A DNA stretch of 64,000 nt from an uncultured Gammaproteobacteria bacterium (GCA_964526325.1 CAZGKM010000002.1:14725-78724), one strand, 5' to 3'; shown: positions 5,366-31,507, counted from the first letter of the stretch. A program made the numbers and translations. Notes: generated by a model not told the origin, from the sequence alone.

Positions 5366-5406
5366 TTTGTCATTCCGGCCTCCGAGCCGGAATCCATTTC
5401 CTTATA
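5366..5406. promoter_or_regulatory. conserved leader hairpin element, copy D (TTTGTCATT-CCGGC…GCCGG-AATCCATTTCCTTAT) 8 nt upstream of tsaC start
   Basis: Seen in the sequence. It is related to the element at 9526-9566 by compensatory stem changes. Confidence 0.55.
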
Positions 5407-5409
5407 ATT

Positions 5410-6084
5410 TTATAATAATTTTTTTACAATTAATTCAACGGCTTTAGCGTTTTTCTCAGCCCCGATTTTATAATCAAAATGTCCCGTAGCGCCATTCCCG
5501 TAATTATCAACCGAACTTATTGCAGCTATTGCCATGTCTGATTCAGCAGCCAAAATAACTTCCGAGGCCAAGGTCATGCCGACGACATCGGCGAATTGAG
5601 AAAACATTTTTATCTCGGCCGCGGTTTCAAATCTGGGCCCGGTCGTCTGAAGATATATCCCCTTTTTATAAATAGACAAATTTATCTGGCAGCAAATTTT
5701 TATCAGCAACTCTCTTAATTCTTGAGAAAATACCGGTGTGGTATGAACGATTTTATCGTTGAAAAAAGTCAGATTGCCGTTTAAGCTGATAAAATCATGC
5801 GGTATTAAAAAGCTTGGCACTTTTACGCTCTTTTTCAAGCTGCCTACCGAATTAAAAGAAATAATCTTTTTAACGCCGTAATCGGCTAAAGCTTGAAAAT
5901 ATGCTTTAAAATTAACCCGGTGCGGCGGTAAATTCCCCTGATGACGCTCTATGAAAAAAATATGGCCACAGCGGAAAATAACCGCTTGCCCGTATTTATT
6001 TTTTACTTTTATCGACTTAAAATTATTAAATAAGCCCGATAACTTTAAGCCGTTTCCGCCAATTAGACAAATTTTTTGTTTCAT
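5410..6084 (-). CDS. purine nucleoside / 5'-methylthioadenosine phosphorylase (PNP_UDP_1 family)
   Basis: 224 aa beginning …ICLIGGNG…. An R/H-rich phosphate-binding region and …GMTLASEV… resemble the MTAP/PNP family. Confidence 0.65.
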   Translation of the reverse strand: MKQKICLIGGNGLKLSGLFNNFKSIKVKNKYGQAVIFRCGHIFFIERHQGNLPPHRVNFKAYFQALADYGVKKIISFNSVGSLKKSVKVPSFLIPHDFISLNGNLTFFNDKIVHTTPVFSQELRELLIKICCQINLSIYKKGIYLQTTGPRFETAAEIKMFSQFADVVGMTLASEVILAAESDMAIAAISSVDNYGNGATGHFDYKIGAEKNAKAVELIVKKLL

Positions 6085-6128: not shown

Positions 6129-7670
6129 TTATTTTACTTTTTCTCTCTTTAATATTTTCACTGTTCCAATGTCCGCGTCAACTTCCACTAAATCACCGTC
6201 TTTCAATATTTGAGTAGCAAATTTAGTTCCAACAATACACGGTTTTTTCATTTCTCTTGAAACAATAGCTGCATGGCACAAAATACCACCTTCGTCAGTA
6301 ATAAATGCTGATGCTTTACGCATCGCCGGAACATAATCTGGGTTTGTCATCGGACAAACTAATATATCACCTTTTTTAATTTTATTTATATCTAAAAAAA
6401 ATGGTACTACACGAACAATTCCCCTAACTATCCCTAAATATGTTGGCTGACCTTTAATAATATTCGTTTCTTTTATTTTTATATCGGCAAGTAGCTGCAA
6501 ATGGTTGGAATTATAATTAATAAGCTCTATTGTGTGGTCATTTATTCTAATTAAAGAATAATCATTAATTCTTCTTTTAATAACCTTTTTGTCAATTTCC
6601 TTACCTTTAATTAACAGATTAATTTCATCTGCCGATAAATATAAAACTTCAAAAAATGATAAATTATGCTTTACTCCAATTAATTCAAAAAAGGAACGAA
6701 AATTATTACCACAAATTCCAACCGCATCCCAATTGTACATTTTAGCATTTATCATTTCTCTAATTATTTTTACTTCTTCTTTAAGATTCACGCTATGTTT
6801 TTCGGCGTCTTCAATAATATTTTTTATTACAAACTCCTTTTTTCCATTTTCCTCTTTTTGTTTTATTATTCCTTTATCATCGCACAATAATAACGTAATT
6901 AGCTTAAAATAATGATTTAGAGAATAAAAAGGCATATGCCAACACAAAGAGCCCATCCAACCGTAATAATCACGATGCTTTAATATATCATTATAGATTC
7001 CTCGATATTTTGTTTTGATAATATCATGCGGTTGCGATTTTTTAAAAAATTTAATCGCTTTTTTGTCTTTTTTAATTTTATTAACAATTCTATTAAATTC
7101 CAATAGCTCTTTGGCTAAAAATGATTTACTTTTTGGCGCTGTCAAATTTGTTAATATTTCCGTAGGATTGATTTGTTCCTTTTTATTCTTTACATACTCT
7201 TTAATTTTACTTTCCAACATTTTAGCTAGCAAAGAGTCAATCATAATGATGCTATAAGCTAACGCCATGTTGCGTTTTTGATATTGAATAAATTTATTAA
7301 AAATTATGATCTGCTTATTTCTATCATTAATTACTGATTTTTTTACTAATTCAGAAAAGGTTATTGCCTCTTTGCCGGTTTTCATTAATAACTTAATGTA
7401 TTTTGTTAAATAATTAAAACTTTCTTTTTTTATCTTCGACTTAAAATAATTATTAAAATCGTCATAATCTTTTTTCGTAAAATAAATAGTGCCGGATACC
7501 GTTAACATTTTTTTAAACCAAACAGGAAAACCTGTTTCTTTAAATGATTCTTTTTTTGTTGATTCCAATATTAACCAATTCATCAAAAAAGGCGTATTCC
7601 ATTTTCCAGCTTTTATCCAACTCGTCTCTTTAATTTTCTTAATGATTAATTTTTTATCAACTTTTATCAT
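6129..7670 (-). CDS. paralog 1: unknown N-terminal domain fused to C-terminal PEP-utilising-enzyme phosphohistidine swivel (mobile) domain
   Basis: The C-terminus GDILVCPMTNPDYVPAMRKASAFITDEGGILCHAAIVSREMKKPCIVGTKFATQILKDGDLVEVDADIGTV is a canonical PEP-utilisers swivel domain with a catalytic His in the GG(x)(T/C)SHAAI core. The roughly 400-aa N-terminal domain shares a YGWM motif with paralog 3. Confidence 0.6.
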   Translation of the reverse strand: MIKVDKKLIIKKIKETSWIKAGKWNTPFLMNWLILESTKKESFKETGFPVWFKKMLTVSGTIYFTKKDYDDFNNYFKSKIKKESFNYLTKYIKLLMKTGKEAITFSELVKKSVINDRNKQIIIFNKFIQYQKRNMALAYSIIMIDSLLAKMLESKIKEYVKNKKEQINPTEILTNLTAPKSKSFLAKELLEFNRIVNKIKKDKKAIKFFKKSQPHDIIKTKYRGIYNDILKHRDYYGWMGSLCWHMPFYSLNHYFKLITLLLCDDKGIIKQKEENGKKEFVIKNIIEDAEKHSVNLKEEVKIIREMINAKMYNWDAVGICGNNFRSFFELIGVKHNLSFFEVLYLSADEINLLIKGKEIDKKVIKRRINDYSLIRINDHTIELINYNSNHLQLLADIKIKETNIIKGQPTYLGIVRGIVRVVPFFLDINKIKKGDILVCPMTNPDYVPAMRKASAFITDEGGILCHAAIVSREMKKPCIVGTKFATQILKDGDLVEVDADIGTVKILKREKVK

Positions 7671-7674
7671 ACGA

Positions 7675-8562
7675 TTATTCTCGATGTAAAGATAAATAAA
7701 ATCTTTTTAATTCATCTATTTTATTTTGATCTAAATACATCTCACCATTCTGTTGTCTATTTGGATTATCAAATGTTACTACCAAGGGCAGCTTTTTTCC
7801 ATTTTGATCAGTTCTAATTCTAATATTAAACGTTTCGGAAGGATTAAACTCACCGCCTATTTCTTTAAAATCTTTAAAGCCGACTACTTGTTCATTATTA
7901 TTTTTTCTTACTAAGGCATACCGAAGTATAAATTCCATCATACCACCATGCGTTCCTGCCGGAATTAAAACTTTTGAATTTGATTTTAATCTTGCCGCCA
8001 TTTGTTGATAATGATCAATCAGATAGGCAAAAGAACCGGCCATTTCTCTTTTGTAATTTTCAGCTTCTGGCGTATCAAGCAAAACCATATATTCCAATAT
8101 TTTAGCTTGCGCTACTTTAGAAGCTTGCGCTTTTTCCTCGGGTGATAAATCTTTAAAATTTTCTGGTAAAAATGAATTATATACGGCTACATGATCATAT
8201 GGTTTTGGCGAAACAATATTCTCATAATTTAAAATTTTATTTGCTCGAGTATTAAATTTCTTATCGCCAGCAATTTCTTTCGCGTAAATATCTGCGGTTT
8301 CTAACGCTCTGCCCATATTCTTTTCTACTACAGGATTAGGATCTGCTTGAGAACCGATTGCTTTAACAGCGTCATATTCCTCGTTATTAATTCTACTTTT
8401 ATTAGCAGCTTTTTTGGTTTGTTCTCTGCCTAAATCGTTTAAAAATTTTCCATCTTTTTCTCCATGCCGAATTAATTTTAAATCAATAATAACGTCTGCG
8501 CCCTCTGGTTTTTTTATCATTTCGATTGAATTTTGATCCAATGATTCTTGATAATTTTTCAT
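7675..8562 (-). CDS. histidine phosphatase superfamily protein (PGAM-like, RHG motif)
   Basis: An LIRHGEKDG catalytic motif near the N-terminus and a downstream …AGTHGG… second His motif. Confidence 0.55.
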   Translation of the reverse strand: MKNYQESLDQNSIEMIKKPEGADVIIDLKLIRHGEKDGKFLNDLGREQTKKAANKSRINNEEYDAVKAIGSQADPNPVVEKNMGRALETADIYAKEIAGDKKFNTRANKILNYENIVSPKPYDHVAVYNSFLPENFKDLSPEEKAQASKVAQAKILEYMVLLDTPEAENYKREMAGSFAYLIDHYQQMAARLKSNSKVLIPAGTHGGMMEFILRYALVRKNNNEQVVGFKDFKEIGGEFNPSETFNIRIRTDQNGKKLPLVVTFDNPNRQQNGEMYLDQNKIDELKRFYLSLHRE

Positions 8563-8578
8563 GTGTTTATTTTAATAA

Positions 8579-9517
8579 TTACAATGTTGTTATCGGTCTG
8601 GATTGAGTAATATAAAATTTGCCTTTAGCCAACGCCCATTCTATATCCTGGGGCTTTTTATAATGCTTCTCTATATTAGTACAAATTTTGGCTAATTCAA
8701 TAATCTGTCTATCGTTTAGCTTTTGCTTTTTTTGTTTAGCTTTTGGCGCGAACGTATGCTTAACTCCACCACTGGTTTTTCTGATTATCATCATTTTCTG
8801 CGTAGCAATATTTATATCCATTATTGAAAAATTTTGCTTGTCAATAACATAAGCGTCCGGCGTTATTTGACCCGATACTATAGCTTCGCCTAATCCCCAG
8901 CCGGCTTCAATTATCATTTGATTTTTGTCTTGAGTAACCGGATGCACGGTAAAAGCAATACCGGAAACTTCCGACTCTACCATGTATTGCACAACTACGG
9001 CCACGCTTACCTTGGTTTTTAGCAATTTTCTTTCATAGCGATAAAAAATCGCTCGCGGCGTAAAAAGCGATGACCAGCATTTTTTAACGTTTTCTAATAA
9101 ATCTTTTTTGGTTGTATCTAAATAAGTTTCTAATTCTCCGGCCCAAGAAGCTACTGACGAATCTTCGGCTGTGGCGGACGAACGCACGGCCACGAATTTA
9201 GCTTTTAGCTTTTTAAATTCCGATAAAATTTCTTTTTTGATGTCGGCCGGTATAGCGCGATCATGAATTAAATCGCGGATAACATTAGACGCTTTATCTA
9301 CCGAATTAATGTCTTTATAATTTACTTTTTTTAATATGGCTGCGATATCAACATCTAAATCGGTTTCTTCTAAAAAACGATCAAAGGCCGAGACTAAAAC
9401 TACGAAGCCTGGCGGTACCGGCAACTTAGCACCGCTCATCTCGCCTAAACTCGCGCCCTTACCCCCGGCTAAACCTATGTCTTTATATGAAAGTTGTTTA
9501 AAATTTTTAGTATGCAT
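8579..9517 (-). CDS. standalone PPDK_N / PEP-synthase-type ATP-grasp nucleotide-binding domain protein
   Basis: 312 aa. GLAGGKGASLGEM…LPVPPGFVV…AVRSSATAEDS…QDIEWALAKGKFYITQSRPIT matches the ATP/pyruvate-phosphate-dikinase N-terminal domain. No swivel or PEP-binding domain is fused to it. Confidence 0.75.
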   Translation of the reverse strand: MHTKNFKQLSYKDIGLAGGKGASLGEMSGAKLPVPPGFVVLVSAFDRFLEETDLDVDIAAILKKVNYKDINSVDKASNVIRDLIHDRAIPADIKKEILSEFKKLKAKFVAVRSSATAEDSSVASWAGELETYLDTTKKDLLENVKKCWSSLFTPRAIFYRYERKLLKTKVSVAVVVQYMVESEVSGIAFTVHPVTQDKNQMIIEAGWGLGEAIVSGQITPDAYVIDKQNFSIMDINIATQKMMIIRKTSGGVKHTFAPKAKQKKQKLNDRQIIELAKICTNIEKHYKKPQDIEWALAKGKFYITQSRPITTL

Positions 9518-9525
9518 ATAATTCT

Positions 9526-9566
9526 TTTGTCATTGCGGACAATAACCCGCAATCCATTTCCTTATT
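9526..9566. promoter_or_regulatory. conserved leader hairpin element, copy E (TTTGTCATT-GCGG…CCGC-AATCCATTTCCTTATT) 8 nt upstream of the PPDK_N-domain gene start
   Basis: The flanks match copy D. The stem is GCGG/CCGC where D has CCGGC/GCCGG, so the changes are compensatory. Confidence 0.55.
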
Positions 9567-9574
9567 AATTAATT

Positions 9575-10627
9575 TTATTTTATTATTTTAACAATTCCTT
9601 TATTCGCGTCAACTTCCACTAAGTCACCATCGTGCAAAATTTTAGTGGCAATTTTAGTACCGATGATGCAGGGAATTTCCATTTCTCTTGATACGATTGC
9701 CGCATGACAAAGAATTCCACCCTCGTCGGTAATAATTCCTGATACTTTTGAGAGGATGGCTACCATATCAGGATGCGTCATATAAGTAACTAAAATGTCG
9801 CCTTTATTAATTTTCGAATAATCTGACTTATTTAATACCAGTTTAGCTATTCCTTGAGCGTTCCCTTTGTAGGCAACTAAACCACGAACTTCTTTTTTAT
9901 CGGCGGTAATATTTTCTTTTTCAAACTCAATCTTATCTAACACCATCTTTGCTCTACTGCCGAATAGCAATTCCGACTTATAATTTTCTAATTTCATTAC
10001 TGTAAGATTTTCTCTTTGGTCCAATAAACTATCATTAATTTCTTTGTCGCCGGATAATAGTTCGGAAAACTCTTTATTTATATATAGATACAACTTGTTT
10101 AAAGATATATTTTTTGTGTTAGATACCATCTCAAAAAAACCTAATAATTCTTTCCACGCCGAACTACTTTTTACTTCCGCGTCATCGTAAATCCGTTGCA
10201 GTATTTCAATTTCCTTTTCATTCCCTTGAGATTGTTTCAAAAAAGTCGCTAAATTTGAAGAATAAAGAATTATCCCGCGCGACAGTTTATAGCATGCTTC
10301 AAATTCTTTCCATGCGTAAAGATTATTCTCTCCGGCTAATCTTGTACTTGCTTTGTCAAGGTTATTAAAAAATTGCTTCATCTGGCTTATTATTTTTTCA
10401 ATTCCTATTCTATTTATATCATTTTTTATACTTTCGACTTTGGACGTAAAATCATCTGGTTTAATATATTGAGTAGTCATGCCATGACTATAAATCGCTA
10501 ATAAATCTTTTTGTTTAACGGTAAAAGGACGGGGTAACATATTTTTATATCCCTCAAAACGAAGAGTCCGCTCTAAAAGAGTGGATTCTCTTGTTACAAG
10601 CTTCTCCCATTGATTACCGTTTGACAT
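9575..10627 (-). CDS. paralog 2: unknown N-terminal domain plus C-terminal phosphohistidine swivel domain
   Basis: C-terminus GDILVTYMTHPDMVAILSKVSGIITDEGGILCHAAIVSREMEIPCIIGTKIATKILHDGDLVEVDANKGIV. Confidence 0.6.
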   Translation of the reverse strand: MSNGNQWEKLVTRESTLLERTLRFEGYKNMLPRPFTVKQKDLLAIYSHGMTTQYIKPDDFTSKVESIKNDINRIGIEKIISQMKQFFNNLDKASTRLAGENNLYAWKEFEACYKLSRGIILYSSNLATFLKQSQGNEKEIEILQRIYDDAEVKSSSAWKELLGFFEMVSNTKNISLNKLYLYINKEFSELLSGDKEINDSLLDQRENLTVMKLENYKSELLFGSRAKMVLDKIEFEKENITADKKEVRGLVAYKGNAQGIAKLVLNKSDYSKINKGDILVTYMTHPDMVAILSKVSGIITDEGGILCHAAIVSREMEIPCIIGTKIATKILHDGDLVEVDANKGIVKIIK

Positions 10628-10629
10628 AT

Positions 10630-11478
10630 CTATCGTAGATTATTATTAAAATTTTTTTTTGGAATGTTGAATAATTCGGTATCAATTTCACCTTCTTCGT
10701 TGAATTTCAGACGCAATCCTTCTGCGTTGCCAGCCATTTGTATTCCTTTTGGATCCATATTCAATTCGCTCGACATAGCCACCGTTACTCTGGGCGCATG
10801 ACTATTGGCAATCACTACCATGGACTCATCTCCTCTGTCGTTAATTCTTTTTGCCAGTTTTTGCAGACCGGCCTTCGTCTCTTCCATATATCGTCTAGCC
10901 TGAGAATATGTTTCTATTCCCTTGGGGATTTCTTCGTCAGGTGTCAGCATCCAAGCGATTACACCGTCGGCGGCTCCGAGACTTTTTTGATATTCAGGAT
11001 CATCTAATTTTTTTCGAAAATCTGGTGTGGAATCAGTCACTGTACCGATACGGCTTTTTACCCCCGGACCGGCCTTGCGATTTCTTTGTTCGATATCAGC
11101 TGAATTATAGGCAGGGTGAAGAATATATATATTCTGATCGGGGACACCATGCTGGATCAACGCTTCTTTTTCAATTTGCGCCTGTTCCATCGTTCGAGGA
11201 GTCTCGGAGTCATATATACGGAACTTTACGGTCTTGAGTATTTCTTCATTTTGTTGTTTGTTACTACCTACTGGCACAAATTCTTGCACTTGAGTAATTA
11301 TTTTTTCTATAGCTTTCTCTACTTGCCTTTTACCCTTCTCTGTCAATTCCCTACTGACATCACTTTTATTGCTCGTTGTTTCTCCATGTCGTATCAAATA
11401 AACAACTAACGTTAGCGAAATCCGCTCTTTTTTCTTTTCCAGGCCTAATGATTCAATCGCATATTTTTCCCCCGCCAT
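10630..11478 (-). CDS. histidine phosphatase superfamily protein (PGAM-like)
   Basis: VVYLIRHGETTSN catalytic motif plus a downstream …IANSHAPR… second His motif. Confidence 0.55.
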   Translation of the reverse strand: MAGEKYAIESLGLEKKKERISLTLVVYLIRHGETTSNKSDVSRELTEKGKRQVEKAIEKIITQVQEFVPVGSNKQQNEEILKTVKFRIYDSETPRTMEQAQIEKEALIQHGVPDQNIYILHPAYNSADIEQRNRKAGPGVKSRIGTVTDSTPDFRKKLDDPEYQKSLGAADGVIAWMLTPDEEIPKGIETYSQARRYMEETKAGLQKLAKRINDRGDESMVVIANSHAPRVTVAMSSELNMDPKGIQMAGNAEGLRLKFNEEGEIDTELFNIPKKNFNNNLR

Positions 11479-11487
11479 AGTTTTTAT

Positions 11488-12990
11488 TTAAATTATTTTA
11501 TTAATAATGCCTCTGCTCATATCCATTTCGATGTGGTCACCGTCTTTAAAAACAGATGTTGCGATTTTCGTCCCGACGATACATGGTTTTAAAAATTCAC
11601 GAGAAAGTAACGCGGCATGGCTCGTTATCCCGCCTTCATCCGTTACCACGCCACGCGCTTTTTTAATCAAAAAAACAGCGTCGGGCGTAGTCATAGTCGT
11701 TATGATAATATCTTCTTTTTTTACATCTCTCTTCTTGTTTTTAATTAAAATTATTTTTGCACGACCTCTTATAATTTTTTCGTCATTTGGGCGGCTGGCT
11801 ACGGTACCTGCCACAAAATTTAAATTCTTGGTATTTTTATGCGTAAAAATTCCAAATTTTTGGAATCTTTTGTGCGCATCATTTCCGCTCATAAATATTG
11901 GCTTTTTGCCAAAAATTCCCTCATAAAGTAAATATGAGCGACTTCTAATCTTATATAATTTAGCTATCTTTTGCGGGGTGTCAATAAATGATTCAATTTC
12001 CCCTATATCAAAATACTTCAGCGCCATATATTCTACTGATATTTTTTTGGCAAAAGCTTCAAGAAACTGTCTAAAAACCCAATGCAACTTAGAGGTAACA
12101 TATTTGCGGTCATCCTGAAGAATATACATACCTTGAAATGCCTCTACTTGCCTTATGACATCATCCGTCAAGCTATGCCGTTTTATCAAATACTTAATCT
12201 TTTTATTTTTTTCGTCTTCATATTTCTGAAGAGTATAAATTACTTTTTCAATTTCTTTTTTTGTTTTACTCCCCACATTTTCTTCAATTATTTTTCTATA
12301 ATGCCGGGCATCCCAATATTCGTTTGCGTCATAAGAAACCGGCATCCAGCCGTATATTTTCGATAACATTTGCGAAATATTTTCAATATCAAATTTATTT
12401 TTTTTATTAAGTTTCTTCAATGTGGCTATACATATATCCAACTCTTCTTTTAACGCCCAGGATTTTTTTATCGGCCCGATTAAATCATTGATAACTTTTT
12501 GATCGGTTATATATTTTTTAAGCGTTGTTTCCAGGTCATTTTTTATATATTCGGATCCGACAAAATATATAGGCGGACTAACAACATTGTAATCGATCCA
12601 CCTTGACTTGATTCGCTTATAAAGTTTTATAAAGCCTGCTGTATTTTTTGGTAACGTTTTATTTTCAAGCTCATTTATTAACTCAAGAAGTTCGATTTCG
12701 GCTTTTTTATGTTTTTGTTGGAGCTGCTTAAAAAATTGCTTTTTTTTCTTTATTTTTTTAACGATAAAATTCCCGAATCTATCCCAGTCAGCTTGATTAT
12801 ATACGGCAAAAACATCTCCGGAAGGTGTAAAAAAATTAACATAGAATTGAATACCTACTCCATAGGTATCAGCAACTCGCTTGTCAGTAATTGCGCTCAC
12901 ATTCCAGGAAGCCGGGATGGGAAGATATTTTCTCGATCTCTTTAAATGGTAATGATTAGGCAAATTTTGTTTTTTTTCATTTATTAGCAT
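11488..12990 (-). CDS. paralog 3: large N-terminal domain plus C-terminal phosphohistidine swivel domain
   Basis: C-terminus IIITTMTTPDAVFLIKKARGVVTDEGGITSHAALLSREFLKPCIVGTKIATSVFKDGDHIEMD. The N-terminal domain shares a YGWM-containing region with paralog 1. Confidence 0.6.
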   Translation of the reverse strand: MLINEKKQNLPNHYHLKRSRKYLPIPASWNVSAITDKRVADTYGVGIQFYVNFFTPSGDVFAVYNQADWDRFGNFIVKKIKKKKQFFKQLQQKHKKAEIELLELINELENKTLPKNTAGFIKLYKRIKSRWIDYNVVSPPIYFVGSEYIKNDLETTLKKYITDQKVINDLIGPIKKSWALKEELDICIATLKKLNKKNKFDIENISQMLSKIYGWMPVSYDANEYWDARHYRKIIEENVGSKTKKEIEKVIYTLQKYEDEKNKKIKYLIKRHSLTDDVIRQVEAFQGMYILQDDRKYVTSKLHWVFRQFLEAFAKKISVEYMALKYFDIGEIESFIDTPQKIAKLYKIRSRSYLLYEGIFGKKPIFMSGNDAHKRFQKFGIFTHKNTKNLNFVAGTVASRPNDEKIIRGRAKIILIKNKKRDVKKEDIIITTMTTPDAVFLIKKARGVVTDEGGITSHAALLSREFLKPCIVGTKIATSVFKDGDHIEMDMSRGIINKII

Positions 12991-13083
12991 GTTTTTAGTT
13001 ATATCGTTTAGCCAAATTTTAAGCGTTTTTTATACTTTTTACCACCTCTTTATACGCATCCATATTATTAGGCTATGTAACTT

Positions 13084-13872
13084 TTATTGTGCTTCCTCTG
13101 TTTTTAATCTAGCCTTTATCATTACATAAACGGGAGTTTCTTCATATTCTTCCCAAAAATCTTGACCTAATTCTTTTTTGCCTTCTCCAGAAATTTCGCT
13201 ATTAATCCACTCTATTTCAAAACCCGCTTCCTTAAAAATTTTTTCGTAAGTTTCTTTGGTCCAGTAATAATTAGTGAATTCTCCCAGCTTTTTATTTTTA
13301 AAATCTTTAAGCTCAATTTTTACTTCACTGCCTTCCTCGCCTGTTGTTGGCGTCATTTTTACGCCATAAGAATCCGAGCCTTTCATTCTTTCCGGGTTGG
13401 CGATGGAAGCATAAAAAAATCCGCCGCTTTCTAAATTATTTTTAACGCCAGAGATTATTTTCCTCATCATTTCTTCGGAATCGGAATAATGAAGCGCCAT
13501 AGCTCCGGTAATAACATCAAACTTTCCTTTTATTGGTAGATTAGCTATATCACCAATGGCATATTCTATCGACCTATCTGAATTTATTCTTTTTTCTTCC
13601 ACCGCCGCTTTACTTATTAACTTCTCTGAAATATCAACGCCAACTACTTCTTCCGCACCCAAATCTCTTAACAATCTGCTGGAAACTCCCTCGCCGCAAG
13701 CCAAATCCAAGGCTCTTTTTCCTTTTAAATCGCCTAGCAATTTAACCCAAGTATAATCAGAGGTATATTTTCTTAATTCCCTTTTAGTCGCCTGCTCGTA
13801 CCCATCGACTATTTTACTGTATTCTTGTTTGACTTTTTCAGTCGACGGCTTAATTATTTCTATATTTTCCAT
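13084..13872 (-). CDS. class I SAM-dependent methyltransferase
   Basis: Motif I ALDLACGEGVSS and …VVGVDIS…, with a typical Methyltransf_11/25 layout. Confidence 0.7.
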   Translation of the reverse strand: MENIEIIKPSTEKVKQEYSKIVDGYEQATKRELRKYTSDYTWVKLLGDLKGKRALDLACGEGVSSRLLRDLGAEEVVGVDISEKLISKAAVEEKRINSDRSIEYAIGDIANLPIKGKFDVITGAMALHYSDSEEMMRKIISGVKNNLESGGFFYASIANPERMKGSDSYGVKMTPTTGEEGSEVKIELKDFKNKKLGEFTNYYWTKETYEKIFKEAGFEIEWINSEISGEGKKELGQDFWEEYEETPVYVMIKARLKTEEAQ

Positions 13873-13883
13873 AAATTATTAAT

Positions 13884-14963
13884 TTACTTGATTATTTTTA
13901 CCACTCCTTTATCCGCATCCACTTCCACTAAATCACCATTATGCAAAACTTTAGTAGCGATTTTTGTGCCAATAACGCATGGCTTCTTTAATTCCCGTGC
14001 AACTATGGCTGCATGAGAAAGCAACCCTCCGCCGTCAGTTACAATGGCCGCTGCTTTTTTCATTAATAATAAATAATTAGGATTAGTCATACCGGTTACC
14101 AGTATTTCTCCGCTCTTAATGGTTGCACCATAATAATCTAAAATTACTTTGCATCTTCCTTTAACTTTCCCCTTAAACGCCGACGCTCCTTTTAATATCT
14201 TTTTTTCAGAATCGTTAAGCCAAATTTTTTCAATTCTATCCGTATCTATGGCCGATAAAAAATAAATTTTCTTCTTAGTAAAATAGACCGAACTTCTTTT
14301 ATGTCTTAAAAATAATTGCCTTTCATCCGGTATCTTTACATTTTCAATAAAATTCAATAATTCATCCTGAGTCATCATTAAAATATTTTCTTTAGCATAT
14401 CCAGTCTGCTCAGAAATTAATTTAGCAACCTTGGCAAATATTATCGCGTTATTCTGATAAAATGACTCGGAATATTTTCGTGCATTTGCCAATATTTTTT
14501 TAGTTTTTTTATCCAATTCATCGTACATAACATCAAACACGACTTTAGTTGCAACATTATATGCTCCAAATATTTCATATAAAGGATTAAACAATTTTAA
14601 TTTTTTTATAAAATTATTTGGGGATTGACTAATTACTGACATTATCTCGCCAGCAACTTGTTTAAAATCTTTAGCCATCTCACCCGCATAATTATTTTTT
14701 TTTAATTTTTCACCCACATGTTTACCTAAGGCTTGATATTCATTTTCTGGCAATCTGATCGTAGCAATACCTTTTTTATAATCAATAAAAAAACTAGAAA
14801 AAGACAAACCGAATATTCTTTCTAAACCATTAAAATAAACCCTATAGGAATTATAAACTTCAAGCAAAGGAAATGATCCGCTCCAATCAACGTGCCAATC
14901 AATGTCATGTATTTTTTTTATTAACTTATTATTTTTTAATTTTGATTTTCTTCCTATTATCAT
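13884..14963 (-). CDS. paralog 4: unknown N-terminal domain plus C-terminal phosphohistidine swivel domain
   Basis: C-terminus GEILVTGMTNPNYLLLMKKAAAIVTDGGGLLSHAAIVARELKKPCVIGTKIATKVLHNGDLVEVDADKGVVKIIK. Confidence 0.6.
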   Translation of the reverse strand: MIIGRKSKLKNNKLIKKIHDIDWHVDWSGSFPLLEVYNSYRVYFNGLERIFGLSFSSFFIDYKKGIATIRLPENEYQALGKHVGEKLKKNNYAGEMAKDFKQVAGEIMSVISQSPNNFIKKLKLFNPLYEIFGAYNVATKVVFDVMYDELDKKTKKILANARKYSESFYQNNAIIFAKVAKLISEQTGYAKENILMMTQDELLNFIENVKIPDERQLFLRHKRSSVYFTKKKIYFLSAIDTDRIEKIWLNDSEKKILKGASAFKGKVKGRCKVILDYYGATIKSGEILVTGMTNPNYLLLMKKAAAIVTDGGGLLSHAAIVARELKKPCVIGTKIATKVLHNGDLVEVDADKGVVKIIK

Positions 14964-15997
14964 AATTTTAATATTTTAACTACCCCCTTATCTGCATCCA
15001 CCTCCACTAAATCACCGTCATGCAAAACTTTAGTGGCGATTTTTGTGCCGATGACACAAGGCTTCTTAAGTTCGCGCGCCACAATAGCCGCATGACATAA
15101 CATGCCGCCCTCATTAGTTATAATCGCCTTAGACTTTACTATCGCGGGTAGAAAATCTGGCGAGGTCATTTCGGCTACAAGAATTTCATTATTTTTTAAA
15201 TTACCTATATCTTTTTTCTCAATTACCAATCTAACTTTACCCCGAACTGGCGATATTTTTAATACACCTACGCCTTTTAAGTTAATAATTTTATTTGATT
15301 TTATTTCTTTTTCCAATTTAATCTTTTTTCTGACTAATTCTTTCATAAGATCTTTTTCTAAAAAAATCTTACCGTTAAACAAGCCAAAGCCTTTTAATCT
15401 ATTTTTTATCTCTCTCAATTTTTTCAGTGGTAAGCTATGCTTGTCGATTAAAACCGCTTCTTCGGGAGTTACAACATATTTATATCGTGAAAAGTCGGGA
15501 TAATTTTTCTGCCAATATGAGAAAAATACTTCATCCATTTTATCGGAAAATTTTTCTCCCCCTTGCCGTAATACAATAGCTTTTTCTTTTAAATCTTCTT
15601 TAACGCCCTTGAGGTCGGGAATATAAAATATGATGGACATAGCCGACCACCAGCGGATGACACAATTATAATATTTTTTAAATTCTTTAATATTTTTTAT
15701 CTGCCGACCGGTCGTTATAAACGGCCTTAAAAATTTCCATTCCTTATCCAGAGTAGCACTTAATTTATCCAAAAATTTTTTATCACTCTGTGTTTTAGTT
15801 TTTATTTTTTTAAAAATAATTTTAAACTCATCGTTATTATGCCAAATATAAGTACGATTGCCATTTTTTTTTAAAAAAAGCGAGTCTTTTAATTTATAAT
15901 TAAGCCACTTACGAAAACTAAGTTGATTGGACTTATAAAACATGAAAAAATAAAAAAGTGAACGTTCGCGCGAGAAATGTAAAGTTAATTTTGTCAT
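14960..15997 (-). CDS. paralog 5: unknown N-terminal domain plus C-terminal phosphohistidine swivel domain
   Basis: C-terminus NEILVAEMTSPDFLPAIVKSKAIITNEGGMLCHAAIVARELKKPCVIGTKIATKVLHDGDLVEVDADKGVVKIL. It overlaps paralog 4 by 4 nt, indicating operonic coupling. Confidence 0.6.
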   Translation of the reverse strand: MTKLTLHFSRERSLFYFFMFYKSNQLSFRKWLNYKLKDSLFLKKNGNRTYIWHNNDEFKIIFKKIKTKTQSDKKFLDKLSATLDKEWKFLRPFITTGRQIKNIKEFKKYYNCVIRWWSAMSIIFYIPDLKGVKEDLKEKAIVLRQGGEKFSDKMDEVFFSYWQKNYPDFSRYKYVVTPEEAVLIDKHSLPLKKLREIKNRLKGFGLFNGKIFLEKDLMKELVRKKIKLEKEIKSNKIINLKGVGVLKISPVRGKVRLVIEKKDIGNLKNNEILVAEMTSPDFLPAIVKSKAIITNEGGMLCHAAIVARELKKPCVIGTKIATKVLHDGDLVEVDADKGVVKILKL

Positions 15998-23442: not shown

Positions 23443-24129
23443 TTATTCTTTTATTTCATACAGCTTCCCCTGACCATTAGGATTAAAATTATTTTTAATT
23501 TCTTCTCCATCATTAAAACCGTCTCCGTCAGTATCCGCCTTTAAAGGATCCGTTAAATACACTTTTACTTCTTCGCGGTCAGTCAATCCGTCATGATCGG
23601 TGTCAGGATCGTTTGGATTAATGCCAAGCCCAACCTCTTCTTCGTCGGATAAGCCGTCCTGGTCGCTGTCGACCGGCTGAATAACCTCAGGCTGAATCGG
23701 CTGATTAATAACATTATTATTTTCTACCGGCTCCGGAATTTCCGGAGTAACCGGAACTTCTGGCGCAATTTGATTATTATTAATTTCTTCTTTAATCTCA
23801 TTATTAACCGCCGCTGCATCCCTATTCATCAGCCTATAGCCAAAATAACCGCCGCCAATCAGAATAACCAAACCGACCAATATAAAACCGGCAATCAAGC
23901 CTTTGTTTTTTAGCCAGCTGTCATCTGGCGGTATAACCGTCCCTATTGTCGGTGAAGAATTATTTTCTTTTGGTCTAAGCACTTCGGGCTTAACGATCTT
24001 ATCCACCTCGGAAAAAATGTCTTCGGTTTTAGGCGGCAAAGTCTTCGCCACGAGATCTGGCCGAGGGACGCCGGTCGGTTGAGCGTCGCTCCCCGACATA
24101 GCATTCTGATTATCTAATTCGTCAAACAT
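23443..24129 (-). CDS. single-pass membrane protein with Pro-rich linker and TSP3-like Ca-binding repeats
   Basis: TM helix, a PEVPVTPEIPEP linker, then DSDQDGLSDEEE, DTDHDGLTDREE and DTDGDGFNDGEE repeats. Confidence 0.5.
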   Translation of the reverse strand: MFDELDNQNAMSGSDAQPTGVPRPDLVAKTLPPKTEDIFSEVDKIVKPEVLRPKENNSSPTIGTVIPPDDSWLKNKGLIAGFILVGLVILIGGGYFGYRLMNRDAAAVNNEIKEEINNNQIAPEVPVTPEIPEPVENNNVINQPIQPEVIQPVDSDQDGLSDEEEVGLGINPNDPDTDHDGLTDREEVKVYLTDPLKADTDGDGFNDGEEIKNNFNPNGQGKLYEIKE

Positions 24130-24140
24130 AAAATTATTTA

Positions 24141-24306
24141 AGGGACTATCACCGAATGCTCTTTCGAGTATAAATTTTCATAATTTTGAAAAAATTTTTT
24201 ATAAAATTTTAGAAACGATATAAACTATATCGTCGAATAAATTTTATATAAAAATTTACCGAAATTTGGAAATTTAGGCCGAATACGGCATTCGGCGATA
24301 GTCCCT
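24141..24306. repeat. 19-bp inverted repeat pair (agggactatcaccgaatgc … gcattcggcgatagtccct, 18/19 complementary) flanking a ~130-bp AT-rich segment
   Basis: Seen directly. It sits between the giant surface-protein gene stop and the start of the downstream TSP3-repeat gene. The enclosed segment has nested palindromes (acgatata-aac-tatatcgt; ccgaat-acggc-attcgg). Confidence 0.6.
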
Positions 24307-24315
24307 AATTATAAA

Positions 24316-27300
24316 TTATAATATTGTTAAATTAATTTCCTCCGACTTATCGCTTTCGTTAGCCTTAAGGTCTAAAGATGAAACCGCGAAATAATATGTA
24401 ACTCCGGCGCTTAAATTATTTATGGTAATTTCGCATTGTCCGGTTGCAGCCGAGCACTTATTTTTTTCAAGATTAACCGATGCGCCTAAAGAACCGCTCT
24501 CGGCGCCGAAATAAATTTTATAAATTGCCGTATCGTCCGTATTGGCTTGCCAAGTAATTACCGCTTTGCCGGCGCCGGCCGTACCGGCTAAATTTTGCGG
24601 AATCTGCGGCGGCCAAACATCCGCCGGAATAAAATTAGTTTCATTGGAATAGCTGCTCTCGGCGCCGCTTTTGTATTTAGCCGTAACCGCGAAATAATAT
24701 TTAACGCCATTGGTTAGATTGCTTATAACAACCGGGTTGGCGATTGTACCAGGATCGGCAACCGAAATCGACTGGCTATAGCCGCCTGATTTAGTGCCGT
24801 AATAAACCAAATATTTATCGAAAATTTGTCCGGTGGGTACAGAAATAGCCTGCCAAGTCAAACCGGCTTTACCGCCTTGCTTAATCGTATCATTAGTCGT
24901 AGTGGCTAAATTTGATGCGATATCCGGCGTATCTTCTCTGAAAAAATAAAACTCTTTTATAATATTCTGCTCGGCTGAAGAACCGCGGATTACGGCCTTG
25001 TCACTTAAAATAGGCGGGAAATCGTCGGCCGTTCCGGCTTCCCCGGTATCACGGCAATAATATAATTCAAAATTAGTGCCCGAACAACCACCGGCTACGG
25101 TAGTGCAATTACTTGACGCATCGCGCCACGGCTCCCAACTGCCATCATCTTTAAACGGCGGCCAAGGATTAGCGCATAAAAAGACATAAACATCCGCAGC
25201 ATTTTCTTTAAATTGACCAACGGTTGATATCTTGCCAACCGCATCCTGCGTAATGGTAGTTTTGACATGAAGCAAGGTATTAGCTTCCTTGACGTTTTGA
25301 GCAACCAGCGTTTGAACAGGATTGTCATCAAGAGCATTTTCTCCATTTATAAACTTAGCTACCGACTTATCGTCTATCAACCAATCCCAGCGCCAGTTAT
25401 AAACATTTTCAATCGGCATGACCGGCTGAGTGGGCGAAAAATATGCCGTAGCGCGGAAAACTTTATCAACATCTCTTATGGTATCATAAGCGGCATTAGC
25501 CGAATCGTCATCGGCCGGATCGTTCACTACGGTATTAAATAAATAACCCGACGGATTAATGGCGACATAATTAACAAAACAAACTCCTTTGTTATCCGCC
25601 GTTTCCGCTTTAGTGGTGAACGACCAAATTTTTCCTTTAAAATTTACGCCGTTAAAAATTTCTTCATCGGTAGTTTTTAAGCCTATGCCCGACTGGCTTA
25701 AAACTCCGTTGTTCATAGCGTCAGAAACATCGGAGTCGCCTTTAATTATAACATAATATTTTCGATTTGCCTCTAAAATTTTCTGCAGCCTAAATTCCAA
25801 TACGGTTGTTTCATTGGCTTGAATATAACCCTTGACCATCCCCGGAACAGCGCAAAAATTTCCTGCCATAGCTTGGGCTTGATTAATAAAAAATTTATTG
25901 AATATCGGTAGGCCGGCCAACCAGTTGGTTAATTTAACAAACAGTCCCGGCTTATAAATCGCGGTTAAATATTTAGTATTGGCCGGGCATTGGTCAGAGC
26001 CATATTCGCCGGCCACGATAATATTACCGTTAAAAGTGTCGGTCCTCATGGGCTGATCAAAAGTAACTTTTACCAGGCTGTTGCGGCAAACATCAACGGC
26101 TCCGGCGGCCGGTACGGTTTCAATCACGTTCGGCCTGGCATGGCAGCAGGTATCGTTGCCGCAACCAACAGAATTAGCATCTCCGCATTCGCTGTCTTGA
26201 CTGCAACCGCAGCAAAGCCCGCGCTTATCGCCGCTGCAAGGCGCTTGGTTGGGTTTGCAAATTAAGGAGGAGTTCAAGCTTGCGCAGCTATCTAGCGCCG
26301 CGAAAGGATCGCAACAGCAAGTACCGCAATTTGAAGGCACCGGACCGGTACCATCCTCGTTTAAACAAGCAAAGCCGACGCATTTATTGATATCGCAACT
26401 TTGCGTTGTCATGGCGCTCTCAAAGCAAGTATTGCCGAATTGCGCGGCAGGCTTACATTTATTATCACATTCGGCTAAAGTAGCGTAACTCGGCGAACTG
26501 GAGGAAGCGACGGCTATATTGGAGCAGCTGCCGGCGCCGCATTCATAATAAGCGCAATAATTATAGGCCGGAAGGCCGGTGGCATATGGCGCTTCCCCGC
26601 CGCGGCAAGCATTTTTATTTTTAGCATCAACACAGCAAGTACCCACGCCTAAACCGCTGCATGTAGCCGCGCTGCTAATCTGAGCGCAGTCTTGGCAAAC
26701 GCCGCTCGGATTAGCGCTGTCAATCAAGCAAAATTTACCGCTGGTACCGCTACAATTGCATGCTTCGTTATGTTCTATTTGAGTCGTGCCAACGCCGGCG
26801 CAGCCGGAACAACGGCCGTAAGTATTGGTATTGGCGGTTATATCACTGCCACATTTACCTTCGCATTTTAAAGGCGAGCAGCAATCTTCGCCGTCATGGC
26901 CGATGCGGCAGCAGCATTCGCAGCTGGCACTGTCGCTTTTTGTGCATTTATTATCACTGCCGCAAATTGAACCGATAGGACAAAGGCTTTGTTCAACCGC
27001 GCAGATACCGACAATCGCGCCGGACGTTTCCTTTATGCATTTAAAGCCGGTATCGCAAGCCGAACAGGTTGTATTATTTTCCATGCAGCGTCCGCCGAAA
27101 ATACTCGTCCACCCGCTGGGACAAGAGGTGCTAATCGTTATAATCCATCTATTTTCTCCGCCATAAGCCAGACAACTGGCCGTGGAAGTTGCGGCAATAT
27201 CGCTAAGCGTATAATTAACTACTTTAGGCAGACCGCAAGTTTGATTCTTTTTAGCGCATTTATCTACATTTAATTTATATTCGCACAAATCGGTTTTACA

Positions 27301-29661: not shown

Positions 29662-29690
29662 ATTTTAATTTTTAATTTTTAAATAATTTT

Positions 29691-31457
29691 TTACCAACAA
29701 CTGCTATTACTGCTCGGCGTGCCATCGCAACAAGAAGGATTGCCGTTTACGCCAAGGCCGGAGCAAGGCGTATAACAATTCTGATAAATGTCTTTAATGC
29801 CGGAATTCAACTCAACCGAGTAATTGGTGTCTTCATTAAACTGATCATGATTAACGTAAGCGGTCGTTTTACTGTCGCTAAAATTATCGCTTTTGGTTAT
29901 CCAGTAGTTATAAAGAGTGGCCGCGCTTTTTAAATTTATGCTTGAGCTATTTAACGATGAGCTCATTAAAAATTTATTAAAAGTAGCTTCCGGTACGGCC
30001 GATAAATCCACTCCGCTGATGCCGACCGACGGATTTATCTGATCTACCTTTGGCGGTATAATATCAATCGTATTGTTAGTATTGAACAACCAATAATAAT
30101 CATCGCCTTGGCCATCGTGCGTTTGGCTGTTGGCGTTATAGGGCACTAAATTGCTTTGCGACTCCGGCCCCTGAGACGTGCCATCGCTATTGCCGTCAAA
30201 CGAATTATCCGCCATATCAACTACGCCGTCGTAAGGGAAAACGGCCGAAGCAATATTAACGTCAAAAGTCGCGGCATTAATAAAAGCTTTAATTTGCTTA
30301 TTGCCGGGCAAGCAATAAATCGTCTGACCGCAAGAATTAATGCCGCAAGCGTCAAAAGTTAAATATTCCACGGTTTTATACTGGTTGGAAATATAAAAAA
30401 TACCCTCGATTATGACGCTATCGGTATTATTTAAAACCTTGATATTATCAAATCCGTCACCATCTTTAAAAAATCCACTGGCCGAAATCGGGTCAACCGC
30501 CTCGGAAAAATTTATTTGCACGACGACGTTTCTCGGTTCGGTAGTGCTGGGCTGTGGAATTATGCTTTCTACTTTCGGCGGCGTGGTATCAATAAAAGTT
30601 CCGACTTCAAACATCCAGTCATAAGCTATTTCGCCTAACACGGCGCCAAAAGCCAAATCGCCATTGGCTTTTTTTATGTTCTTGCTTAAGCCGACCGTGT
30701 ACCAAATTTTTTCCGTGGGCGAGCCTAAATATTGCGTCGGCTTAAAAACAAAAGTTTTATTATCGTCGGTTTTAAACGCGCTGACATCAAAAGTCACCGC
30801 GCCGGCTACGCCGTCTACGGTTTTATAAATTTTAATATTTTGCTGGTTGATCTTGCCATCGGTTATAATAGTGGCCGGATCGATAGCCTCTTTAAAAGTA
30901 ACCGCGATTTTGGTGTTTCTCGGAACGTCTTTTTGGTTGCGTGCCGGATAATGGGAATTGATTATGCCTGAACCTAAAGCTGAAATTCCGCCGCCGGCGC
31001 CTCCGCCCGGAGGTCCGGCAACGTTGCCGTCAACTATGCCCATTAATTTATTAAGAATAAAGCTGACTATCGCGAAAGCCGCTAAAATAATTAATAGACC
31101 GATAACCGCGTTGGTTAACGTCTTTTTGGCCTGCGCGATTTTTTCTTCATTGCCTTCGCTTGTCATCCAGAGCCAGCCGGCATACATTATTAAACTCACC
31201 GCTATAATGCCAAGAAAACCGATAATTATTCTGATAATTTTAGCGATAGTTACTCTTATATCCTGGGAATTGCTTAAGCCCGTGCCTTCAGCGTAGTTTA
31301 AGCCAATTTCAGGTCCGGTCGCGGCCAAAACAAAATTTGACAACAAAAAAATAGCCAATAGCATAAATAAACATACGCCGGCTATTTTATAAAGCCTATT
31401 AAATTTTCCGTTTTTTAGCATGGTAAAAAATAAGTTTAAAAACTTTGACTTTTGCAC
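29691..31457 (-). CDS. 588-aa surface protein sharing the VirB2/TrbC-like N-terminal module, with Ig-like domains and a Cys-rich C-terminus
   Basis: The N-terminal roughly 130 aa are about 70% identical to the giant protein (FVLAATGPEIGLNYAEGTGLS…IIRIIIGFLGIIAVSLIMYAGWLWMTSEG…). A GPPGGGAGGG linker follows, then TPPKV- and IPPKVDQ-type Ig-like segments and a C-terminal CYTPCSGLGVNGNPSCCDG. Confidence 0.65.
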   Translation of the reverse strand: MQKSKFLNLFFTMLKNGKFNRLYKIAGVCLFMLLAIFLLSNFVLAATGPEIGLNYAEGTGLSNSQDIRVTIAKIIRIIIGFLGIIAVSLIMYAGWLWMTSEGNEEKIAQAKKTLTNAVIGLLIILAAFAIVSFILNKLMGIVDGNVAGPPGGGAGGGISALGSGIINSHYPARNQKDVPRNTKIAVTFKEAIDPATIITDGKINQQNIKIYKTVDGVAGAVTFDVSAFKTDDNKTFVFKPTQYLGSPTEKIWYTVGLSKNIKKANGDLAFGAVLGEIAYDWMFEVGTFIDTTPPKVESIIPQPSTTEPRNVVVQINFSEAVDPISASGFFKDGDGFDNIKVLNNTDSVIIEGIFYISNQYKTVEYLTFDACGINSCGQTIYCLPGNKQIKAFINAATFDVNIASAVFPYDGVVDMADNSFDGNSDGTSQGPESQSNLVPYNANSQTHDGQGDDYYWLFNTNNTIDIIPPKVDQINPSVGISGVDLSAVPEATFNKFLMSSSLNSSSINLKSAATLYNYWITKSDNFSDSKTTAYVNHDQFNEDTNYSVELNSGIKDIYQNCYTPCSGLGVNGNPSCCDGTPSSNSSCW

Positions 31458-31507
31458 AATCTTGTAATAATATTATAACATAAACAAAATAACAAAAGCA
31501 AATAATC

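Follow-up and report, generated by a model that had tools for sequence, protein, structure and literature searches.

A candidate hub-and-spoke dikinase: one ATP-grasp gene and five phospho-histidine carrier genes in an array of Patescibacteria type

Introduction

The closest described relatives of the gene array reported here are two-component dikinases. PpsAB (phenylphosphate synthase), CreHI and HpeHI require both of their subunits. One subunit is a separate ATP-grasp protein, and the other joins a substrate domain like that of rifampin phosphotransferase (RPH) to a swivel domain (PMC12167813). HpeH is able by itself to shuttle phosphate between substrates, and the crystal structure of HpeI has been solved (PDB 9GOJ; PMC12167813). 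The Hpe pathway also has a dedicated NagD/HAD phosphatase, which acts after an intervening carboxylation (PMC9618137). Here we describe a minus-strand cluster of nine genes at positions 6129-15997 of a 64,000-nt stretch of DNA (CAZGKM010000002.1:14725-78724; hereafter the window). It encodes one ATP-grasp protein (AG), five swivel-domain carriers (S1 to S5), two histidine-phosphatase-fold proteins (HP1 and HP2) and a methyltransferase (MT).

The cluster shares three features with HpeHI of Rhodococcus, CreHI of Corynebacterium and PpsAB of Thauera/Aromatoleum. The ATP-grasp subunit is separate and homologous to HpeI. The second subunit joins a substrate-binding domain like that of RPH to a C-terminal swivel with the motif T/SxxGGxxxH. 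Neither system contains the TIM barrel that binds phosphoenolpyruvate (PEP). As in the Hpe pathway, the kinase is paired with a dedicated phosphatase, here of the histidine-phosphatase fold rather than HAD/NagD.

The differences lie in number, size and context. The known enzymes are 1:1 and belong to aromatic-catabolism operons with carboxylases, whereas the cluster is 1:5 (elsewhere up to 1:7), stands in a housekeeping context of the Candidate Phyla Radiation (CPR) and the DPANN archaea, and has no carboxylase in the window flanks. The known H subunits are ~70 kDa with ~45% mutual identity, while the carriers here are 345-513 aa with hypervariable substrate domains, and fusions of several modules are known in the array group. 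A preliminary description of this DNA knew of no system with this organization. That statement goes too far for the two-part split, which has precedent in HpeHI, CreHI and PpsAB, but it stands for the one-to-many arrangement, of which we found no description in the literature outside subscription journals, CPR and DPANN included, a search that does not prove its absence. The new feature is thus the conserved one-to-many layout; the two-part split is known only as 1:1. From sequence comparison, we consider that the cluster is probably, at about 0.65, a hub-and-spoke, multi-specificity two-component RPH-type small-molecule dikinase in which phosphorylation would be transient.

Results and discussion

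A complete ATP-grasp subunit stands beside five parallel carriers

The nine consecutive minus-strand genes of the preliminary description were all recovered as open reading frames (ORFs) with the same boundaries (Table 1). They run head to tail between 15997 and 6129, separated by -4 to 93 nt, and would be transcribed in the order S5, S4, MT, S3, HP2, S2, AG, HP1, S1. For comparison, 80 genomic loci were retrieved through AG (58-84% identity) and annotated afresh. In 60 of these AG is standalone, and the other 20 encode RPH-like AG-S fusions. The set takes in metagenome-assembled genomes (MAGs) labelled Woese-, Nano-, Aenigm- and Micrarchaeota. The computation establishes the identities of the domains, the intactness of the catalytic motifs, the RPH-like fold, the synteny, the fusions and the pattern of conservation.

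AG is a full-length PPDK_N protein and the sole copy in the window, in agreement with the earlier view that the ATP-binding domain is encoded once, as a separate 312-aa protein. It matches HpeI (9goj) over full length (E = 6.9e-54), residues 8-316 of RPH (5fbs; E = 1e-65) and PEP synthase (8a8e; E = 2e-73). The motifs GGKG18, VRSSA112, AGELETYL126, DIEWA291 and QSRPIT305 are intact. Homologues of ~312 aa number in the thousands, are 70-85% identical and occur in many Patescibacteria lineages.

A Pfam search with profile models placed PPDK_N (PF01326) in the 312-aa protein and PF00391 in all five S proteins. Each of the five swivels keeps T-x-x-G-G-x-x-x-H, and the swivel of S1 matches PEP synthase 8a8e with E = 2e-24. 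The swivels had been called near-identical. This is too strong for the 45 residues on either side of the histidine, where identity is 39-67%, and fits better the 43 residues that follow it, where identity is 49-95%. Between S4 and S5 this post-histidine segment is 95% identical as protein and 51% identical at third codon positions. Purifying selection therefore maintains it, and recent gene conversion between the two C-termini is ruled out. Such selection is as expected for a surface that docks to a common partner.

The N-terminal domains were initially described as unrelated or only distantly related. Our alignments overturn this: they are homologous to each other, and every one that could be detected is a divergent substrate-binding domain of RPH type. 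The alignment of S1 with S3 runs over the full length (E = 4e-35), and those of S1/S2, S4/S5 and S3/S5 cover 240-300 residues. Among the short carriers, S2 130-350 aligns to S1 269-508 (E = 3e-43), S4 aligns to S5 over 257 residues and also to S1 283-508, and S5 aligns to S3 226-496 and to S4 119-359. The short class (S2, S4, S5) thus corresponds to about the C-terminal 60% of the long class. The NCBIfam RPH model aligned to S2 184-348 and S4 175-357, and RPH-like models to S3 245-497. RPH is the closest solved full-length structure, and the whole N-domain superimposes on its small-molecule-binding domain. A YGWM region reported for S1 and S3 is indeed present, but it is not peculiar to them; the motif is shared by the family and can be aligned with RPH as well.

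Two observations on individual carriers may be added. S3 alone reads G-G-I-T-S-H. Its Thr, two residues ahead of the catalytic histidine, is replaced by Leu in S1, S2, S4 and S5 and falls where PEP synthase and pyruvate phosphate dikinase (PPDK) have their regulatory phospho-Thr (PMC12167813). In a sister population (L003 1904-3445; Logan SRR14492170) S1 is called as two ORFs of 431 and 73 aa, with the swivel apart from the substrate domain, either through a frameshift variant or through an assembly error.

RPH itself (PDB 5FBS/5HV1; NF041857) is a single chain of 865 aa, whereas in the cluster its modules are split and multiplied, at ~17% identity and far below the model cutoff. The NF041857 model, whose cutoff is 999 bits, gives AG 283.9 bits and the S proteins 53-76 bits. 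The prodiginine/tambjamine condensing enzymes PigC, RedH and HapC also have the RPH-type architecture, and their NCBIfam models match the S C-termini at E = 1e-17 to 1e-24 and AG at E = 1e-75. They show that the RPH-type family can phosphorylate a substrate to activate it for a following reaction. However, they are single-chain enzymes of pigment biosynthetic clusters, and our cluster falls far below their cutoffs and has no biosynthetic partners.

The cluster is not a PEP synthase

By sequence, the ATP-grasp and swivel modules most similar to those of the cluster are found in PEP synthase/PPDK. The best NCBIfam and PDB matches of both modules are PEP synthases, and JGI names the homologues "pyruvate, water dikinase" or "phosphoenolpyruvate synthase/pyruvate phosphate dikinase". 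The genes could on this ground be a split or fragmented gluconeogenic PEP synthase/PPDK, or pseudogene debris of one disrupted ppsA, which we regard as extremely improbable. In PEP synthase/PPDK a central swivel is followed by the PEP/pyruvate TIM barrel (PF02896), whereas the cluster lacks the barrel and has an RPH-type helical substrate domain instead. Pfam found no PEP-utilizers_C (PF02896) domain in the nine proteins, the PF02896 region taken from a genuine PEP synthase has no match among the ORFs of the window, and the domain is lacking in 79 of the 80 loci. A genuine PEP synthase in locus L045 served as positive control, and the absent PF02896 rules out a split PEP synthase. All scores are far below the cutoffs of the PEP synthase models TIGR01418/NF005057 (598-740 bits), at 326-340 bits for AG and 87-122 bits for the S proteins. 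Debris of a disrupted ppsA is ruled out as well. Each of the five genes encodes a complete swivel, and their lengths are like those of their homologues; they are paralogs in parallel, under purifying selection, and not ordered fragments. As in the preliminary description, the proteins belong to the RPH/PEP-synthase family as modules; they are not pseudogene fragments.

One charger accompanies many carriers across loci

Swivel genes were counted within 10 kb of AG. Among the 60 standalone-AG loci, 49 have at least one swivel gene and 31 at least two, with a maximum of seven, and almost all lie on the same strand as AG. The adjacency of ATP-grasp and swivel genes is therefore conserved in 49/60 of these loci. 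Swivel-gene lengths are bimodal, at ~330-390 aa and ~450-540 aa.

The one-to-many relation also exists within single polypeptides. Three ORFs encode one PPDK_N domain followed by several modules, each of a variable domain and a swivel. There are two modules in L060 (1318 aa) and four in L062 (2217 aa), counts confirmed by Pfam, and at least three in L077 (1905 aa), which ends at a contig edge. L060 adjoins genes for an archaeal MCM and a PolD small subunit, and the system therefore really crosses domains. The high identity between bacterial and archaeal ATP-grasp sequences points to cross-domain exchange among ultrasmall symbionts.

Conservation differs sharply between the modules. Every pair of AG proteins drawn from the loci can be aligned (median identity 64%), and the swivel domains have a median of 54%. 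By contrast, 14% of N-domain pairs are alignable, with a median of 23%. Clustering at 30% identity divides the 134 N-domains into 80 groups, and paralogs of the same locus never exceed 35%. The best homologue of S1 outside the strain is 38% identical. The proposal that one ATP-charging module serves several carriers thus has strong comparative support in sequence, from the 49/60 loci, the multi-module ORFs with one PPDK_N and the pattern of conservation.

The characterized split systems are all 1:1, so a single S protein could be the true partner of AG, with the other swivels charged otherwise, non-catalytic or decaying duplicates. In the substrate domain, the residues equivalent to the catalytic site differ from one window paralog to another, and the sister population with a split S1 would fit decay. 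Nevertheless, the phospho-histidine motif is intact in all five proteins, and their post-histidine surface is under strong constraint. There are single polypeptides in which one ATP-grasp is combined with 2-4 carriers, neither a second ATP-grasp nor a PEP-binding domain exists in the window, and multi-copy arrays are the rule across lineages. We therefore consider a single partner very unlikely, and prefer a hub-and-spoke dikinase with AG at its centre.

The array turns over at a fixed chromosomal site

The frame around the array is shared by loci L004, L006 and L007, in the order x550-RsmI-MetRS-CvpA-array-AG-(Sua5)-TatD-ATPa, at ~50-84% identity (75-84% in L004 and L007). Each of these loci has just one or two S genes, whose identity to any carrier of the window is ~33%, and is without HP1, HP2, MT and the PNP-family phosphorylase gene that lies beside the array in the window. 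A fixed frame around differing arrays marks this chromosomal site as a hot-spot of array turnover. Given such rapid turnover within the frame and the hypervariable substrate domains, the acceptors would be derived from the environment or a host rather than being core metabolites.

A capped histidine phosphatase accompanies the larger arrays

The identification of two RHG-motif histidine phosphatases held up, since both families keep the catalytic histidine of the RHG motif, the second arginine and the second histidine. In the HP1 family R32, H33, G34 and H205 are invariant and R85 nearly so; in the HP2 family R30, H31 and R95 are invariant and H227 nearly so. A sequence-only search of the PDB with the HP1 profile found nothing, and structure prediction was therefore needed. 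HP1 is predicted to have an alpha/beta phosphoglycerate-mutase-like fold with a large helical cap, and its best matches are acid phosphatases and phytases. This capped, acid-phosphatase-like model leans towards small-molecule substrates.

HP2 also has the alpha/beta phosphoglycerate-mutase-like fold. Its match to PF00300 is borderline (24.6 bits; threshold 21.7), and 16 of 18 members of its family match that model. The family is linked distantly to that of HP1 (hhalign probability 85%) and comprises only 32 representative clusters among 1.84 billion proteins. It does not recur in the 80 loci, so that HP2, unlike HP1, is not upheld as a partner of the arrays.

An iterated profile found HP-like genes in 22/80 loci. 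They are present in 13 of the 16 loci with at least four swivel genes, versus 9 of the other 64 (Fisher p = 6e-7). There is usually one such gene per array, and they also occur beside single-chain fusions. Two more small families with an N-terminal R-H-G/S lie near arrays, represented by L024 190-786 (minus strand) and L027 496-1353 (plus strand) and found in 7 and 4 loci. The iterated profile missed these, and the association with phosphatases may therefore be undercounted. As a capped histidine phosphatase accompanies most large arrays, phosphorylation would be transient and not a terminal inactivation.

A different use of the same modules would be a phospho-histidine relay, with AG as kinase, the S proteins as ligand-sensing carriers that pass phosphate to proteins, as Enzyme I of the phosphotransferase system (PTS) does to HPr, and HP1 and HP2 as a reset of the SixA type. 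PTS Enzyme I and SixA do likewise pair a swivel phospho-histidine domain with an enzyme of the histidine-phosphatase superfamily that could dephosphorylate a phospho-histidine protein. Unlike them, the cluster has no PEP-binding domain and no HPr/NPr-like acceptor, and genes for HPr-like proteins, response regulators or other acceptors do not recur around the arrays. HP1 and HP2 (295 and 282 aa) are about twice the size of SixA (~155 aa, uncapped). HP1, with its large helical cap, best resembles acid phosphatases and phytases rather than the open 156-aa SixA, and has no match to the SixA model TIGR00249 (cutoff 74.5 bits). HP2 reaches 25.4 bits with that model, over the first 33 aligned residues. 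The superposition of the whole N-domain on a small-molecule-binding domain also argues against a relay, which is therefore unlikely.

The hub-and-spoke dikinase could instead serve for terminal inactivation of antibiotics or toxins, as an RPH-like resistance array or repertoire of "chemical immunity". RPH is the closest solved full-length structure, and the RPH family is a large group of enzymes of which some act on antibiotics (PMC4844700; PMC12167813). Matches to rph-like genes were counted in a survey of the CPR resistome (PMC8651080). Hypervariable substrate domains, a copy number of 0 to 7 and turnover at a hot-spot are all typical of conflict genes. However, the phosphatase linked to 13/16 large arrays would reverse the inactivation if it acts on the products, the NCBIfam RPH scores are far below their cutoffs, and there are no PADLOC or viral links. 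Inactivation as the role of the system is thus conceivable but doubtful, and we favour transient phosphorylation by the dikinase.

In searches for defence and viral links, PADLOC gave nothing relevant, PHROGs gave generic domain matches only, and no relatives were found on IMG/VR contigs. An anti-phage defence system and a phage origin were rejected on these results.

Proposed mechanism

In the mechanism that we propose, the single AG would bind ATP and act in trans, pyrophosphorylating the swivel histidine of each of S1 to S5. The gamma-phosphate of the pyrophosphorylated histidine would be lost to water, yielding AMP, Pi and His-P. Each swivel would then return to the divergent helical domain of RPH type that binds substrate in the same carrier, and pass the phosphate to an acceptor that differs per carrier, most likely the hydroxyl or enol of a small molecule. 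HP1 and HP2 would remove the phosphate later, so that phosphorylation would serve only for a time to activate or trap the substrate, as in the Hpe pathway. We infer the trans-charging, the dikinase stoichiometry, the small-molecule acceptors and the role of the phosphatases in this scheme.

In RPH, R666 and K670 belong to a network needed for the second phosphotransfer (PMC4844700). They align to a family motif, LRxxRxD, and both positions are basic in most array proteins. Across the family, the residue aligned with R666 is K in 44 sequences, R in 42 and Q in 22. R takes the place of K670 in 90, and D that of E667 in only 49.

Several points weigh against the proposal. In the window the equivalents of R666/E667/K670 are only partly kept (K-M..N in S1, Q-D..R in S3, R-K..S in S4), and therefore some S paralogs may use different chemistry or be inactive; in S2 and S5 the R666/K670 region is not reliably alignable, and the short-class alignment there was left unused. 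The association of HP-like genes with array size is partly confounded by the length of contigs. One phosphatase for many carriers could equally well act on the phospho-histidine that all swivels share, instead of on a variety of products. Unbiased clustering of neighbours in the 80 loci gave no clue to substrates and only clade-specific synteny; such neighbours include RecG/RadA-like ORFs, a Walker-A ATPase cluster and MetK-, AhcY- and riboflavin-gene-like ORFs, none of them general. AG was counted per locus and not per whole genome. Taxon labels are the submitters' own, and the flanks of L062 are ambiguous, with an AspRS that carries a GAD domain. Finally, the biochemical proof of action in trans comes from the two-component homologues HpeHI, CreHI and PpsAB.

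On a broader view, CPR bacteria and DPANN archaea may share a combinatorial system. It would consist of one conserved charger, a diversifying library of recognition/carrier modules, in separate genes or one polypeptide, and a dedicated histidine phosphatase, and would capture, activate or neutralize changing small molecules derived from a host or community. We offer this only tentatively. If true, it would be a lifestyle-defining metabolic interface of ultrasmall symbionts, with a one-to-many architecture for which the dikinase superfamily has no described precedent. The recently recognized two-component dikinase subfamily would be extended from 1:1 enzymes of aromatic catabolism to a hub-and-spoke form, with a different logic for substrate range. 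The thousands of ATP-grasp homologues, and arrays of up to ~1% of ~1-Mb genomes, imply an important function. Because the genes annotated as "pyruvate, water dikinase" or "PEP synthase" have no PEP-binding domain, metabolic reconstructions of CPR/DPANN organisms have probably erred where they infer gluconeogenesis from them. The hypervariable substrate domains would also be a ready-made library of small-molecule kinases for biocatalysis.

Neighbouring genes and further observations

Table 1. The nine array genes and the adjacent phosphorylase gene in the window.
Feature	Position	Strand	Description
S1	6129-7670	-	Long-class carrier, 513 aa; RPH-type substrate-binding domain and C-terminal phospho-His swivel; PF00391 E = 4.7e-26; His466
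HP1	7675-8562	-	Capped histidine-phosphatase-fold protein, 295 aa; recurrent phosphatase partner of arrays
AG	8579-9517	-	Standalone ATP-grasp (PPDK_N) putative charger subunit, 312 aa, HpeI/PpsB-like; PF01326 E = 1.5e-99, full length
S2	9575-10627	-	Short-class carrier, 350 aa; PF00391 E = 2e-25; His308
HP2	10630-11478	-	Divergent protein of the histidine-phosphatase superfamily, 282 aa; rare family; PF00300 24.6 bits
S3	11488-12990	-	Long-class carrier, 500 aa; PF00391 E = 6e-21; His458
MT	13084-13872	-	Class-I SAM-dependent methyltransferase, 262 aa; Methyltransf_31, _25 and _11 at E = 1e-13 to 1e-15
S4	13884-14963	-	Short-class carrier, 359 aa; PF00391 E = 9e-25; His317
S5	14960-15997	-	Short-class carrier, 345 aa; PF00391 E = 9e-26; His302; first array gene, 4-nt overlap with S4
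PNP_UDP_1-family phosphorylase	5410-6084	-	224 aa; PF01048 E = 3.5e-32; between S1 and the Sua5/TatD flank

The array is flanked on one side by genes for ATP synthase a, TatD, Sua5/YciO and the PNP-family phosphorylase, and on the other by CvpA, MetRS and an RsmI-like methylase. The 64-kb window contains no further copy of the ATP-grasp, swivel or other array modules. MT is an S-adenosylmethionine (SAM) methyltransferase, as first described, and matches class-I methyltransferase families. Its place as an interleaved partner is not borne out, for no homologue was found in the 80 related loci at E <= 1e-5, and MT is a locus-specific accessory gene. The PNP-family phosphorylase gene lies inside the variable segment, and its membership of the system is uncertain; it is not found in the syntenic L004, L006 and L007 nor in any other of the 80 loci.

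The closest loci carry the labels Patescibacteria/Falkowbacteria. Several MAGs (including L007, L017, L018 and L029) have loci of Patescibacteria type, with flanks 70-84% identical to the window, yet bear the submitter label "uncultured Gammaproteobacteria". L062 is labelled Woesearchaeota, yet its AspRS with a GAD domain looks bacterial. The taxon labels of the locus set, as given by submitters, are unreliable.

Some neighbours recur in part of the set. About 1-6 kb downstream of AG, 12-14 loci (L020-L030 and others) share a conserved block. It consists of a proline/alanine-rich ORF of ~490 aa, ORFs of ~139, ~207 and ~226 aa, at least two of them with hydrophobic stretches, and a Walker-A ORF of ~633 aa. 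From its sequence, this block looks like a secretion or conjugation-type ATPase cluster. By eye, ORFs resembling SAM synthetase, S-adenosylhomocysteine hydrolase, riboflavin kinase and lumazine synthase lie near arrays in L020, L021, L023 and others. A small nucleotidyltransferase resembling cytidylyl transferases or FAD synthetases was likewise seen by eye near arrays in 9 loci, and in L020 is directly upstream of AG.

Scans of the window gave no matches in Rfam and no excess of promoters or terminators over the shuffled expectation. A two-copy element of the 5' untranslated region lies at 9527-9565 and 5367-5405, both on the minus strand, each copy ending ~14 nt before a start codon. One copy precedes the AG gene and the other the Sua5/YciO-like gene. 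Identical flanks, ATAAGGAAATGGATT ... AATGACAAA, surround a hairpin whose stems differ by compensatory changes (GCGG/CCGC vs CCGGC/GCCGG). The exact 13-mer of the element occurs in two places only in the 64 kb, and elsewhere only in contigs of the same organism. Finally, G+C is 0.42-0.50 at 24000-32000, versus ~0.35 elsewhere in the window, and this stretch coincides with two minus-strand ORFs of 1781 aa (24316-29661) and 588 aa (29691-31457).

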